A stretch of DNA of 64,000 nt from a virus, in IMG/VR virus record IMGVR_UViG_3300025534_000008, positions 3,310 through 67,309 of that record. One strand, 5' to 3'. The position numbers were made by a program, and so were the translations under genes. A model generated the notes under the pieces. The model did no database searches. It worked only from the letters and a program-made list of their open reading frames with translations, and was not told the DNA's origin. The first letter of the stretch is position 1, and each line of letters starts with the position of its first letter. This document shows, piece by piece, positions 1 through 31,666 of the stretch.

Positions 1-699
1 ACTCTGTTTTTCTGCTTTTATTTTATTATAATATTGATTTATAGACTTTAATGGTCTACCATTAATTATAAACGGTTTTAATCTAACATTATTTGCCACC
101 GTTGCCAAATTATCAACACCAATATCAATTCCTATTATTCTATGAGATTCTTCTTTTGCTTCTGGCACATCTATCTCATATACTATTTCCATTACATAAG
201 AATTTTTTCTTGGTATAAATCTAACTTGCATCAATTTACCTGTAGCATTTGTTTTAAATTTATTATTTAAAGGTTTTAATGGTTTCCAGCTAAATCTTAA
301 ATAACCATCTTTTATTTTACATTTAATATTATCAATTACTAAAATATTTCTACCTTTTTCTTTATCTTTGTATTTGGGAAGTTTAGGTCTGCCCAAATAT
401 TTGTCCTTATTTTTGTTCCAATCTTTAATGCTGGCAAAGAATGATTTCCAATTTTTATCAAGTAGTTTTAAAGTTTGTTGACCTACATTACTGCCTAAAT
501 CTCTATATGGTTCAGAATCTTTTATAATGTTTGCTAATTCATTATATCGAATCCATTTATTATTTTTAATAAATTCTTGTCTTACAATATAATTAGCATA
601 ATTATATACATTTTTTGATTTAAAACACAAATCGTCTATGATTTTATATATGCCATCACTTTTTTTAATTAAATGTTGCTCAACTCTATTTACTTTCAC
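1..699 (-). CDS. tnpB: TnpB (IS200/IS605 OrfB) RNA-guided nuclease, N-terminal part, truncated by window edge
   Basis: Manual translation from GTG at 699 (RBS AGAAGGGAAG): MKVNRVEQHLIKK...LCFKSKNVYNYANYIVRQ...RPKLPKYK...GIDIGVDNLAT (RuvC-I Asp intact)...PFIINGRPLKSINQYYNK. Not in the ORF track. Confidence 0.92.
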   Translation of the reverse strand, partial: MKVNRVEQHLIKKSDGIYKIIDDLCFKSKNVYNYANYIVRQEFIKNNKWIRYNELANIIKDSEPYRDLGSNVGQQTLKLLDKNWKSFFASIKDWNKNKDKYLGRPKLPKYKDKEKGRNILVIDNIKCKIKDGYLRFSWKPLKPLNNKFKTNATGKLMQVRFIPRKNSYVMEIVYEIDVPEAKEESHRIIGIDIGVDNLATVANNVRLKPFIINGRPLKSINQYYNKIKAEKQS

Positions 700-721
700 A
701 ATATACTTCCCTTCTTATAAA

Positions 722-819
722 ATTGCATTTATATATATGTGCGAGTTGCAACTACAATATAGTCATATGCCTGATTAACTGCTGTTAGGTTATATTCACA
801 CGTATGTGCAAGTTGCAAC
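722..819 (-). CRISPR. Putative CRISPR-like mini-array: two 31-nt repeats around a 36-nt spacer
   Basis: Minus-strand repeats GTTGCAACTTGCACATACGTGTGAATATAAC (819-789) and GTTGCAACTCGCACATATATATAAATGCAAT (752-722), 23/31 identical; spacer 753-788. Only two copies. Confidence 0.45.
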
Positions 820-866
820 AGCACCACATTAAAACATAGATATATCAATAGTTTTAAATTATAAAA

Positions 867-935
867 GTGCGAACATCACAATTTTGTGTGAATTTTATTG
901 AATAATTTAGTTACGTTCGCACCAAATTATTCAAT
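867..935. other. Structured non-coding segment (hairpin plus possible pseudoknot) upstream of the mini-array
   Basis: ATTGAATAATTT (897-908) is the perfect inverse of AAATTATTCAAT (924-935); loop segment GTTCGCAC (915-922) is complementary to GTGCGAAC (867-874). Confidence 0.45.
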
Positions 936-990
936 TGGGTAAAACCCATACCCTCTATTCTGTTTTGTCAGAACTACTTTTTAAAATAAT

Positions 991-1161
991 TCACATATGC
1001 GTTTCTTTTCTTATTTCTTCTTCTATTAAACGTAATTGTTCGCTAGAAAAATATCCTTCTTTACACAATTGACGCAATATGCCTATTTTGAAGTTATTTA
1101 TTAACCCTTTGCGTTCTTCTTCGGAAATATTAATTTTAAGTTTTCCATTTGACGTTACCAT
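991..1161 (-). CDS. Small hypothetical protein (56 aa), SHOCT-like C-terminus
   Basis: RBS GAAAGGAG; MVTSNGKLKINISEEERKGLINNFKIGILRQLCKEGYFSSEQLRLIEEEIRKETHM; own promoter at 1184-1212. Confidence 0.65.
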   Translation of the reverse strand: MVTSNGKLKINISEEERKGLINNFKIGILRQLCKEGYFSSEQLRLIEEEIRKETHM

Positions 1162-1183: not shown

Positions 1184-1212
1184 ATTATAGTATTTCATTT
1201 TGATTTTGTCAA
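1184..1212 (-). promoter_or_regulatory. sigmaA promoter
   Basis: TTGACA-17 nt-TATAAT on the minus strand. Confidence 0.75.
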
Positions 1213-3581: not shown

Positions 3582-4832
3582 TTAGTCATGTGAGGAAACA
3601 GCCACATCTATCCTCCTTTCCCATAATAATGTTTTTGCCTTGCTTATAAGTTTTAAATCTTTACAATTGGCACTCCTATGAATAACTGTACCATCAAGTT
3701 TTCTTAAATCAAAATAACCAGAACTGCGTCTACCGAATATAAAACATTCTTGTCCTTTGTATTTTACCTTGTCAAACAATCTGAATCCTTTTACTAAATA
3801 AGGAGCTTGATTTAATTTCTTTTTGTCGCCCTTTAATATATTGGCTTTATGAATTTGTCTATTGTGCCTTCTTACTTGCTTAATATAATACCAATAATCT
3901 AATCTTTTAACATTAGGATTACCACTTATACATAATGCATCAATCCTATGTTCTTTTGGTAGATTATTCTGTATTCTAGTGTTTTTAGTAATATATCCAT
4001 AAGTTATTTTTACATTAGAATATATTTCTTTGAGTCTATTATAAAATGTCCACCTCATAATCCCCATAAAAGCTGCATCTTTAAACGATTGACCGCGTTT
4101 TAAATTTAATTTTAATTTACCAGCATGATAATCTTTATGGCAACTTTCACACAAAGTAATAAGGTTGCTTGGGGAATTTCCACCAGTTTTCCTTGATTCT
4201 ATATGATGTACATTTAATATTTTATTTTTGCAACCCTTTTTACCTTGACATTTATATCCATCTCTCCAAAGGACATATTCTCTTACATTCCAAAATCCCA
4301 ATTGTTCTCCTTGTTGGTATTGTTCACCTTCTATATCGGGATTTTTAATCTTTTGTATATCAAAGGAAGCAACTTCTATTATTATTTTTGATATAGGCAA
4401 AATTTCGTGTATCTTACTTGTTATTTTTAAATGTGTTTGTATTTTATTTTCAACAGAAGGTGCTAACCAACCTTTATTTTTACTATAAACACGATTTAAA
4501 AATCTGGGTTTTCTATACCTTAATCTATTCCTTCTTGTACGTCTGAATTCTCTACGTGTAGATAGTAAGTCTACAATATCGTTTCTTAATTCTACTTCTG
4601 CTGAAAATAGCTCTTGCTTTTCTGTTGTAGCAGATACTCCAATAAATTTACTTCCTGCATCTATACCTAATGTTATATCCTGCTTGGTTTCACCAGTTGC
4701 GTATAATAATTGAATTGTAAATGGTTCTCTTTTTACTACTTTTGCCTTACCTTGTTTTAATAATTTTCTCGCTTTACTTGGTGTTGTAGGCATTAATGGT
4801 TCTTTTCTTTGATTAATGACATATACTCTCAA
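3582..4832 (-). CDS. iscB: RNA-guided endonuclease IscB
   Basis: PLMP motif, RuvC-I GIDAG, Arg-rich bridge helix, RuvC-II IIIE, HNH VHHI...NLITLCESCH, RuvC-III HRIDA. Confidence 0.96.
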   Translation of the reverse strand: MRVYVINQRKEPLMPTTPSKARKLLKQGKAKVVKREPFTIQLLYATGETKQDITLGIDAGSKFIGVSATTEKQELFSAEVELRNDIVDLLSTRREFRRTRRNRLRYRKPRFLNRVYSKNKGWLAPSVENKIQTHLKITSKIHEILPISKIIIEVASFDIQKIKNPDIEGEQYQQGEQLGFWNVREYVLWRDGYKCQGKKGCKNKILNVHHIESRKTGGNSPSNLITLCESCHKDYHAGKLKLNLKRGQSFKDAAFMGIMRWTFYNRLKEIYSNVKITYGYITKNTRIQNNLPKEHRIDALCISGNPNVKRLDYWYYIKQVRRHNRQIHKANILKGDKKKLNQAPYLVKGFRLFDKVKYKGQECFIFGRRSSGYFDLRKLDGTVIHRSANCKDLKLISKAKTLLWERRIDVAVSSHD

Positions 4833-5054
4833 GTTATGTCCTCCTTTCTGGAGTTAGTACCCTTAGACAATGTTACCTATACTTTTTACACTTAACTCAC
4901 TGTTCCTACCCATCAGAACTGTTTAAAGTTAAGCAACAGAGCTACGAACTAGGGTAAACATTCGTAGGTGTTATGATATAGGTAACGTAGCTTTCGCTTA
5001 GTCTAGTCAATAAAGGCTTTTGCAAGCCCGCCACTTTAGTGGTGGGTTATTGAC
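4833..5054 (-). ncRNA. omegaRNA (HEARO-type) scaffold of IscB element 1
   Basis: About 220 nt structured leader directly upstream of iscB with GTCAA start and the CTACGTT and AACATTG motifs. Confidence 0.85.
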
Positions 5055-30094: not shown

Positions 30095-30355
30095 GTCAAC
30101 TACCCCACCCTATAGAGGGTGGAGCTTGTGATTAACAAGCTCAGTTGATTAGCCTCAGCCAGGGGTATTAACCCTATCGGGCTACGTTATATGGGAATAT
30201 ATAGTCACCATAGGATGCTCCACAAGTCCTATGCTCTGAGGGCAGTGGTTAAACATATCTGAGGGTAGGAGAAGTGCTGCTGCCATACAAAACCCCATAT
30301 AACATTGGCGATGTGGACTTACCACTACTTTGTAGTGAGTTATTACTCTTTAAGG
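30095..30355 (+). ncRNA. omegaRNA scaffold of IscB element 2
   Basis: About 260 nt structured leader with CTACGTT and AACATTG motifs. Confidence 0.85.
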
Positions 30356-30364
30356 AGGGTTAAT

Positions 30365-31666
30365 GTGGTATTTGTAATATCTAAAGAAGGTAAACCTTTA
30401 ATGCCTACTAAAAATCATGCTAAAGTTAGAATACTACTAAAACACAAGAAAGCTAAAGTTATTAGAAGAAAACCATTTACTATTCAGCTTCTATATGAAA
30501 CCACTACCTATACACAGCCTATTATACTTGGAATAGATAGTGGCTACAGTTATATTGGTTTTTCTGCTATTACTGAAAAGGAAGAACTAATATGTGGTGA
30601 AGTTAAACTACTTCAAGGTATATCTGAAAGATTAAAGGAAAGAGCTATGTATAGAAGGCAAAGACGCAGTAGACTTAGATACAGAAAACCAAGGTTTGAT
30701 AACAGGAAGAAGTGCAGTGATTGGTTACCACCTTCTATACAACATAAATTTGACAGTCATATTAGATTTATTAACTTTTTAAAGAAAATACTTCCTGTAA
30801 CAGATGTGGTAATAGAAGTGGCTAACTTTGATACGCACAAGCTAAAAAATCCAGATGTAGAAGGCATAGGCTATCAACAAGGCGAACAAGAAGGTTTTTA
30901 TAACCTAAGAGAGTATATACTCTATAGAGATAATTATAAATGCCAGTTATGTGGCAGAGAAGATTTACCCTTAGAAGTTCATCATATAGGCTTTTGGAAA
31001 CAAGATAGAACAGATAGACCAAGCAATTTAATTACGCTATGCATTAAGTGTCATACTCCTAAAAACCACCAAGAGAATGGTAAGCTATGGGGATTAGAGC
31101 CTATTCTAAAACCACTTAAAGAAGCTACTTTTATGTCGACAGTTAGATGGAAATTAGTTAATATACTTAATTGCAAATACACTTATGGATATATAACTAA
31201 GTTCACAAGAGTAGCTTTAGGTTTAGAAAAAACGCACTATAATGATGCATTTTGCATAGCTGGTGGAATTAATCAAGCAAGAACAAAACCTATTATATTT
31301 GAACAAATTAGAAGAAACAATCGTTCATTAGAAAAATTCTATGATGCAAAGTATATAGACATAAGAACAGGTAAAGTTGCCACGGGACAAGAACTGTTTT
31401 GCGGCAGAAGAACACGAAACAAAAACTACAATACAGAAAATTTACGCAAATATAGAGGACAAAAGATATCTAAAGGACAAAGGAGAATACGCACTCAAAA
31501 ATATTTCTATCAGCCTAAAGATATTGTTATCTATAATGGTAAAAAGTATGTTGTTAAAGGAGTACAGAATAAGGGTAATTATATTAAGCTTGAAAAGTTA
31601 AATAAGCCAGTTAAAGTAAGTTTAGTTAAGCCTTATGAATTTAGAAAAGGATTTTGTGTAGTTTAG
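30365..31666 (+). CDS. iscB: RNA-guided endonuclease IscB
   Basis: GTG start after AAGGAGG; PLMP, GIDSG, VIE, HNH EVHHI...NLITLCIKCH, HYNDA. Confidence 0.96.
   Translation: MVFVISKEGKPLMPTKNHAKVRILLKHKKAKVIRRKPFTIQLLYETTTYTQPIILGIDSGYSYIGFSAITEKEELICGEVKLLQGISERLKERAMYRRQRRSRLRYRKPRFDNRKKCSDWLPPSIQHKFDSHIRFINFLKKILPVTDVVIEVANFDTHKLKNPDVEGIGYQQGEQEGFYNLREYILYRDNYKCQLCGREDLPLEVHHIGFWKQDRTDRPSNLITLCIKCHTPKNHQENGKLWGLEPILKPLKEATFMSTVRWKLVNILNCKYTYGYITKFTRVALGLEKTHYNDAFCIAGGINQARTKPIIFEQIRRNNRSLEKFYDAKYIDIRTGKVATGQELFCGRRTRNKNYNTENLRKYRGQKISKGQRRIRTQKYFYQPKDIVIYNGKKYVVKGVQNKGNYIKLEKLNKPVKVSLVKPYEFRKGFCVV

Follow-up and report, generated by a model that had tools for sequence, protein, structure and literature searches.

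TranC systems (transposon-CRISPR intermediates) reportedly use both a CRISPR RNA (crRNA) and a right-end RNA (reRNA), with a split guide, as described in a 2025 paper in Cell. A preprint of 2026 described a TranC of the 414-aa class in a Caudoviricetes genome (CauTranC9), the spacers of which match phages; its selection was restricted to systems with a downstream array (bioRxiv 10.64898/2026.03.27.714800). Cas12 arose from TnpB independently, 40 'V-U' branches having been documented, and in nearly all conserved associations of Cas12 with arrays it is downstream of the gene for the effector that the array is found (PMC10691335). The locus described here, a tnpB gene preceded by a two-repeat array and a tracr-like (trans-activating crRNA-like) scaffold, is located at the start of a window of 64,000 nt, which is the whole stretch analysed and corresponds to bases 3310-67309 of the 75,162-nt IMG/VR virus contig IMGVR_UViG_3300025534_000008 (CheckV completeness estimate, 42%). 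As judged from sequence comparisons, the locus is likely to be a phage-encoded, TnpB-derived miniature CRISPR-like system of the TranC or type V-U kind. The minus strand of the window served as reference for all coordinates of the module, and the left end of the contig beyond the window start was added as L003 (= G000:C1) to read the whole tnpB.

Like TranC, the locus possesses a TnpB-sized effector lacking REC/WED expansions (404 aa, versus a mean of 414 aa in clade 9) and a short array without cas1 or cas2; it is phage-encoded with spacers matching other phages, its guide RNA is apparently divided between repeat-spacer units and a scaffold derived from omegaRNA, and an omegaRNA is kept beside the array. 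Unlike TranC, the array and scaffold are situated upstream of the nuclease gene and the repeats are 29-37 nt instead of 38 nt. Similarity between the window TnpB and LaTranC (PDB 9jfq/9jfo) was remote, with Foldseek template modelling (TM) scores of 0.55/0.48 and 15% identity. Functionally, the clade of the window TnpB fits the TranC kind; besides the upstream module, it differs in a visible relic of a deleted upstream tnpB and in the occurrence of single-guide and multi-repeat forms together. The array-upstream layout contradicts the rule reported for Cas12 (PMC10691335).

Resemblance to Cas12f (type V-F) and V-U systems lies in a TnpB-derived miniature RuvC effector, the lack of adaptation genes and a tracr-like RNA; however, the window TnpB shares no more than 19% identity with any solved Cas12f, has no zinc finger and has its array upstream. 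With the IS607 TnpB of ISFba1 (PDB 8iaz; PMC11061315) it shares a size of about 400 aa and a conserved 3′ omegaRNA starting inside the open reading frame (ORF), whereas the window locus has no TnpA, no RAGATH-18 match in Rfam, and an extra upstream guide module with foreign spacers.

Array, scaffold and their possible pairing

Promoter, 56-aa ORF, scaffold, array and tnpB follow one another in this order on the same strand (Table 1).

Table 1. Positions of the features of the tnpB locus (window coordinates unless L003 is named)
Feature	Position	Strand	Basis or remark
Sigma-70-type promoter TTGACA-17-TATAAT	1184..1212	(-)	consensus score 12/12
56-aa ORF, between promoter and scaffold	991..1161	(-)	ORF list
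Tracr-like scaffold	820..981	(-)	similarity to the ORF's own 3′ end; covariance-model match
Scaffold hairpin 1 (GGGTA-TGGGTTT-TACCC)	953-937	(-)	compensatory changes across loci
Scaffold hairpin 2, 15-nt arms, 93% complementary	935-921 and 911-897	(-)	
Scaffold hairpin 3, contains ATTCACAC	891-876	(-)	
Variable linker of scaffold	875-820	(-)	part deleted in L012, L013, L263
Repeat 1, 32 nt, GTTGCAACTTGCACATACGTGTGAATATAACC	788..819	(-)	conserved in L012, L013, L263, L014
Spacer, 35 nt, TAACAGCAGTTAATCAGGCATATGACTATATTGTA	753..787	(-)	unique in window; 35/35 match to L172
Degenerate terminal repeat GTTGCAACTCGCACATATATATAAATGCAAT, without AACC tail	722..752	(-)	same form beside tnpB in L012, L013, L263
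tnpB, 5′ part, 233 codons, GTG start at 699	1..699	(-)	ORF list; gene continues past window start
Canonical 3′ omegaRNA of tnpB	L003 2753-2855	(-)	covariance model, 98 bits; outside window

The initial annotation had described two 31-nt repeats sharing 23 of 31 residues, each beginning with GTTGCAAC, separated by a 36-nt spacer and ending 22 nt short of the tnpB start. These were located at 819-789 and 752-722, with the interval at 788-753 and a GTG start codon at 699, and identity and distance to the start were as described; the sizes had to be shifted by one residue, since ..ACC precedes every spacer in every locus and the first C of the 36-nt interval thus belongs to the repeat, giving a repeat of 32 nt that ends in AACC and a spacer of 35 nt. 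With two repeats and one spacer, the array is the minimum, and no second array was found on the contig. The 3′ half of the repeat, CACA-TAC-GTGTG-AATATAACC, resembles hairpin 3 plus tail of the omegaRNA, CAAAC-ATAAA-GTTTG-AATAAAT.

The tracr-like segment opens with AAAAAGTAGTTC...GAATAGAGGGTATGGGTTTTACCCA, a near-copy of the last tnpB codons, AAAAAAGTATTTCC...GAATAGAGGGTGTAGGTTTACACCCA. A covariance model made from the 3′ omegaRNAs of 28 relatives, with the window left out, gave a full-length but weak match to it (L003 4188-4276 = window 879-967; 17.1 bits, E 0.36) and likewise weakly matched the scaffolds of L263 (E 0.031) and L105 (E 0.21) at the same relative position. Because of the near-copied 3′ end and the covariance-model match, the segment is read as a diverged omegaRNA relic, in which the end of a tnpB ORF and the omegaRNA that goes with it have been duplicated; the covariation of repeat tails with the scaffold loop (see below) agrees with the tracr-like role first proposed for it. 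Folding of the scaffold with repeat 1 beat 200 of 200 shuffles (z = -4.16). In Rfam, scaffold and array belonged to no known RNA family, L003 matching tRNA only and the whole window tRNA and HEARO only, and a scan of viral contigs for the exact scaffold motif returned only the contig of L004 and a chance match in a giant ORF (L011).

Several pairings had been proposed from the window alone. Complementarity between ATTCACAC (893-886) and GTGTGAAT of repeat 1 was found to be exact and was kept in all five loci of the window group, with one G-U in L014. The hairpin now designated scaffold hairpin 2 was likewise present. Pairing of GTGCGA in the hairpin loop with TCGCAC holds for repeat 2, whereas repeat 1 reads TTGCAC. 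The loop pseudoknot GTGCGAAC/GTTCGCAC was not conserved, its 3′ partner being deleted in L263 and altered in L013.

A different contact was suggested by hairpin 1, the loop of which varies together with the repeat tail across loci: GGGTTTT with ATAACC in the window group, GGGTCTT with ATGACC in L004, L008 and L046, GGGTTCT with TGAACC in L266, GAGTTAT with CATAACC in L264, and GGGTTT(C/T) with TAAACC in ten loci with TnpB proteins 54-59% identical to that of the window. Cognate loop-tail combinations formed 4-5 Watson-Crick pairs versus a mean of 3.8 in non-cognate combinations. Canonical 3′ omegaRNAs likewise combine TTTA loops with ATAAAT tails and TCTA loops with ATAGAA tails. The covariation fits a putative pseudoknot beside the guide, and such a pseudoknot would explain the invariant ..CC of the repeats.

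TnpB, related loci and spacer targets

The complete tnpB ORF (L003 2794-4008, minus strand, ending at G000:C1 2794) encodes 404 aa with the Pfam domains OrfB_IS605 and Cas12f1-like_TNB, and the RuvC D-E-D triad (D192/E331/D372) was invariant across 41 homologues. A C4 zinc finger between RuvC-II and RuvC-III occurs in most TnpBs, although it is not strictly defining. Here this finger (CxxC..CxxC) was missing: residues 335-370 contain a single Cys, a pattern shared by the whole clade. An AlphaFold2 model (predicted local distance difference test score, 89.6) showed a TnpB/Cas12f fold, with AsCas12f (8j12/8j3r) as best structural match, followed by matches to ISDra2 TnpB (TM 0.73 on target), ISFba1 IS607 TnpB and LaTranC, each at no more than 19% identity. 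Sequence searches of PDB gave remote relatives only, and databases name the protein family only as 'transposase'.

In the 3′ omegaRNA of this family, hairpin 1 lies within the ORF and hairpin 2 spans the stop codon; hairpin 3 and a tail of (A/G)AT(A/G)AAT complete the four parts, and the guide comes after the tail. Compensatory changes in hairpins 1-3 were abundant across the 28 loci, and the boundary to the guide was sharp, as the flanks of the window phage and L012 part right after GAATAAATT. The initial annotation had advised looking for the 3′ end of tnpB and had counted a normal 3′ omegaRNA against an intermediate. Both a full ORF and a normal 3′ omegaRNA were found just outside the window; the latter does not refute the intermediate, and the locus is therefore read as a dual-guide system.

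Protein-guided scans of viral, metagenome and genome collections, together with look-ups of close homologues, yielded about 250 loci. The architecture recurs in at least 20 of them, on viral or metagenome contigs, with proteins 54-98% identical to the window TnpB, 1-6 repeats and differing spacers. These include L012 (98% identity; same scaffold, 5 repeats and 4 spacers unlike that of the window), L263 (93%; 3 repeats), L013 (92%; 3 repeats), L266 (77%; at least 5 repeats, 37-nt unit), L014 (75%; 3 repeats of a related repeat), L008 and L046 (58%, ORF or contig truncated; 2-3 repeats, 30-nt unit), the ten loci at 54-59% (2-3 repeats, 36-nt unit), and three loci with one repeat-like unit and one guide, namely L264 (82%), L015 (76%) and L004 (75%). 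Sizes of repeat/spacer by subclade were 29-30/35-38, 32/33-36, 36/29-32 and 37/33-36 nt. In all of the approximately 20 loci the array follows the scaffold derived from omegaRNA and precedes the tnpB start, its orientation being unchanged, and in many cases there is overlap between the final repeat and the ribosome-binding site of tnpB. Terminal repeats are degenerate, with the degenerate form conserved across four loci. The spacers turn over among loci 92-98% identical while repeats and scaffold are kept; one spacer was common to L038 and L165, the latter having one extra. An invariant spacer in homologous loci, which would have spoken against an array, was thus not what was observed. Within one clade the loci form a graded series, from solo TnpB with 3′ omegaRNA, through an upstream single-guide copy (L004, L015, L264), to arrays of 2-6 repeats, which provides direct comparative material on CRISPR arrays arising from transposon guide RNAs.

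In a tree of 141 proteins, every array-bearer fell within a TnpA-less, mostly viral clade (support 99), where they made up two well-supported subclades with array-less genes between them. A serine-recombinase TnpA was encoded directly upstream of tnpB in 32 of the 141 homologues; in the sister clade, 20 of 32 members had an IS607 serine-recombinase TnpA in this position. The tnpB gene is from an IS607 lineage. The absence of tnpA noticed at the outset was confirmed, none being found beside tnpB here or throughout the 46-row clade. Among the 80 nearest relatives in cellular genomes (no more than 59% identity, mostly Clostridia), none carried the module.

Two of the related contigs bear further arrays. 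In L013, nt 2-1066 (+) encode a second miniature TnpB/Cas12f-like protein of at least 354 aa with a CxxC zinc finger, followed downstream by a four-repeat array (GTTTCTATAGTAACTATGTAGGTAGCAAAC; 1535-1770), which is the canonical layout; this array sits approximately 0.7 kb upstream of L013's own scaffold-array-tnpB module. In L188, a relative from a Clostridiales metagenome-assembled genome (54% identity), a longer CRISPR-like array (5-300) lies approximately 0.9 kb upstream of tnpB.

Searching the spacer against phages, as had been suggested, gave an exact match. A search of IMG/VR with a codon-degenerate form of the window spacer returned one match, identical at 35/35 nt, to L172 1605-1639 (-) of contig IMGVR_UViG_2778261583_000002, with the preceding C mismatching. 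The protospacer lies within the gene for a 274-aa major head protein (PHROG 267, E 7e-52; Pfam Phage_capsid_4), and the contig shares no detectable similarity with the phage of the window (GC content 30.9% vs 28.5%). Spacers 2 and 3 of L012 differ mainly at every third base, the opposite strand encoding T[T/A]LP[Q/D]HNYAVT, and a degenerate search traced this segment, at up to 34/37 identity, to a conserved structural gene (PHROG 16444, akin to structural proteins with Ig domains) of ten small viral contigs. On their 5′ side, the protospacers were flanked by AAAAAGAAA in the exact match and by TACCTGAAA in the best near-exact match, which tentatively suggests a GAAA-type motif 5′ of the protospacer as the protospacer-adjacent motif (PAM). 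Comparison of all 32 spacers with the genome of the window phage and about 170 fetched loci gave noise only, so self-targeting was considered absent. A spacer motif, TAACAGCA, is similar to the ACAGCAA motif repeated downstream of tnpB; this is regarded as coincidence because the spacer copies the foreign capsid-gene segment exactly.

Proposed origin and rival explanations

The arrays may have originated from a tandem ancestor of which the final ~60 nt of one tnpB ORF, together with its omegaRNA, remained directly upstream of an intact tnpB, whereupon the terminal hairpin-plus-tail unit of the omegaRNA, with its guide, would have turned into a repeat-spacer array. A transcript from the promoter at 1212-1184 would give, upon processing, a scaffold-repeat-spacer RNA, in which the 3′ tail of the repeat (..AACC) is predicted to pair with the GGGUU loop of scaffold hairpin 1. 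The omegaRNA pseudoknot would in this way be rebuilt beside the guide, as in canonical TnpB RNAs, and the 35-nt spacer, positioned 3′ of the repeat like the guides of Cas12 and TnpB, would direct the 404-aa RuvC TnpB to cut matching DNA. Two guide sources, the upstream array and tnpB's own 3′ omegaRNA, would coexist, and spacer turnover presumably occurs via host adaptation machinery or recombination, no cas1 or cas2 being present. Since the spacer matches the head gene of an unrelated phage of much the same GC content, the module probably serves to exclude phages that compete for the same host.

The reading of the locus as a TnpB-to-Cas12 intermediate with a mini-array, proposed in the initial annotation, was supported by an array that varies in close relatives and a spacer that matches the capsid gene of another phage. 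A phage-carried module apparently aimed at structural genes of other phages adds evidence for RNA-guided nucleases in inter-phage competition. On the practical side, it offers a 404-aa putative nuclease devoid of a zinc finger together with its natural guides, for which one natural target at least, flank included, is known.

Several observations weigh against this reading. A single array origin is not established, because the array-bearers form two separate subclades, and the window array offers only one usable spacer. The covariance-model match to the window scaffold is weak when taken alone (E 0.36), and the pseudoknot helices comprise just 4-5 bp, with cross-locus controls averaging 3.8 bp. 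The PAM is based on two protospacers, one exact and one near-exact, and no convincing match came from the other spacer searches: the window spacer and the L012 array against INPHARED phages, spacer 2 of L014, spacer 1 of L012/L013 and spacer 2 of L263 against IMG/VR, the L046 and L266 arrays against phages, and the window-spacer pattern against the genome-contig collection. Furthermore, no Cas1 or Cas2 Pfam match was found on the 75-kb contig (42% complete).

As for how such arrays might gain spacers, the ten loci of the 54-59% subclade (L025, L027, L029, L095, L097, L098, L038, L104, L105 and L165), with arrays approximately 190 nt upstream of tnpB, are informative. Their array can be aligned with type II-A arrays that occur in 'Listeria phage' records (E 2e-6), and the repeat is identical at 28 of 36 positions to the Listeria type II-A repeat GTTTTAGAGCTATGTTATTTTGAATGCTACCAAAAC, with the same 66-nt period. 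The heptamer ATTTGAG precedes the array in 9 of the 10 loci (ATTTGAT in L095), the leader-repeat junction being ATTTGAG/GTTTTAGA(G/A)CTATG, also written ATTTGAG/GTTTTAGAGCTATG. In group-1 type II-A loci, ATTTGAG is the leader's conserved 3′ end and, together with the first repeat, was reported to be sufficient for spacer integration (PMC5382924). The subclade is thus like type II-A (PMC5382924) in junction, 36-nt repeat and period, but the 3′ third of its repeat is replaced by ..TAATAAACC and no cas9, csn2, cas1 or cas2 was found nearby; the window locus has no such similarity. These arrays are joined to the omegaRNA relic and bear the tail ..TAATAAACC, and their last repeat overlaps the tnpB ribosome-binding site.

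This arrangement suggests, from sequence likeness, that the arrays of the 54-59% subclade may be extended by host adaptation machinery, and the junction points to a possible route of spacer gain for Cas1-less arrays. A possible, still doubtful extension is that the arrays are chimeric: the leader end and the repeat's 5′ portion would mimic the CRISPR type of the host, so that host Cas1-Cas2 adds spacers, while the ..ACC tail and omegaRNA relic would load the guides onto the phage TnpB. The type II-A-like subclade offers explicit evidence for it in the ATTTGAG/GTTTTAGAGCTATG junction, the 36-nt repeats and the 66-nt period; under it, the window locus would represent such a device adjusted to a different CRISPR type of host. 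If true, the phage would get adaptive, host-serviced immunity against rival phages via a 404-aa nuclease.

Virus-borne mini-arrays with host-type repeats are known in inter-viral conflicts, and the window array could in the same way feed a host CRISPR-Cas effector, with tnpB as a mere neighbour. The lack of cas1 and cas2 on the contig, the repeat and spacer sizes that vary by subclade, and the likeness of the 54-59% subclade to type II-A in repeat (28/36), period and leader end (PMC5382924) are in line with this explanation, which is nevertheless improbable given the constant position and orientation of the array between scaffold and tnpB in all ~20 loci, the frequent overlap of the last repeat with the tnpB ribosome-binding site, the ..ACC tail that is common to all repeat classes and covaries with the scaffold loop, and the resemblance of the repeat 3′ half to the omegaRNA terminal hairpin and tail. 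Moreover, the window repeat, allowing up to 3 mismatches, was not found in 401 sampled genomes of the class holding the nearest cellular relatives (Clostridia-type) and had no match in the phage collection, nor any type II-A similarity. The same absence from the 401 sampled Clostridia-class genomes tells against an RNA anti-CRISPR, another possibility raised at first.

More improbable still is decay after two tandem IS607-type insertions, of which the module would be a now functionless vestige, a right-end/omegaRNA relic whose ends were duplicated locally. The scaffold is plainly what is left of the 3′ end of a tnpB, the window array is minimal with a degenerate second repeat, and tnpB is truncated in some relatives (L008, L009), all of which agree with decay; however, spacers are replaced between loci 92-98% identical while repeats and scaffold are retained, spacers match coding genes of other phages (one as an exact 35-mer), the scaffold loop and repeat tail show compensatory changes, and an identical degenerate terminal repeat is conserved in four loci. 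Tandem operator sites controlling tnpB expression, suggested by two imperfect direct repeats shortly before the start codon, both opening with the palindromic GTTGCAAC, are hardly credible, as relatives have 1-6 repeats, the intervening sequences are mutually unrelated, and that of the window reproduces part of a foreign phage gene exactly.

Promoter and neighbouring elements

A single predicted transcript, which would cover the 56-aa ORF, the scaffold, the array and tnpB, probably starts at the sigma-70-type promoter at 1212-1184; terminator-like sites were not found on that strand, and the 56-aa ORF had no Pfam match. A near-identical copy of the promoter was located at 1420-1448 (repeat family D1). 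A 29-nt direct repeat, 93% identical (1205-1233 and 1441-1469), holds the two near-perfect sigma-70 promoters, one of which heads the 56-aa ORF, scaffold, array and tnpB, and the other a tRNA-Leu(UAA) at 1313-1399.

Between tnpB and the next gene, the region L003 2130-2790 (-) contains approximately 7 stem-loops, each with the motif (C/T)(A/G)TACAGCAA, and two tRNA-like elements with inserts of 49 and 38 nt in the anticodon loop (Rfam tRNA, 46.6 and 38.5 bits). The gene following the stem-loop region (L003 639-2117) encodes a 492-aa DUF2828/DUF7788 protein with a von Willebrand factor A domain (TROVE/Ro-like). Together, the protein and the RNAs look like a Ro-type RNA-binding protein with putative Y-RNA-like or tRNA-like partners. 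The whole ~2.2-kb DUF2828 and small-RNA cassette is missing from L012 (L003 ~570-2795 vs L012 3715-3805).

Two IscB-type loci were also found in the window. The first (3582-5054, minus strand) has a HEARO/omegaRNA at 4853-5054 (159.6 bits) upstream of a gene for a 416-aa protein with RRXRR and HNH domains and the N-terminus PLMP; the second (30095-31666, plus strand) has a HEARO at 30095-30322 (146.8 bits) upstream of a 453-aa ORF. With tnpB, these two loci bring the OMEGA-type nucleases of this phage to three.

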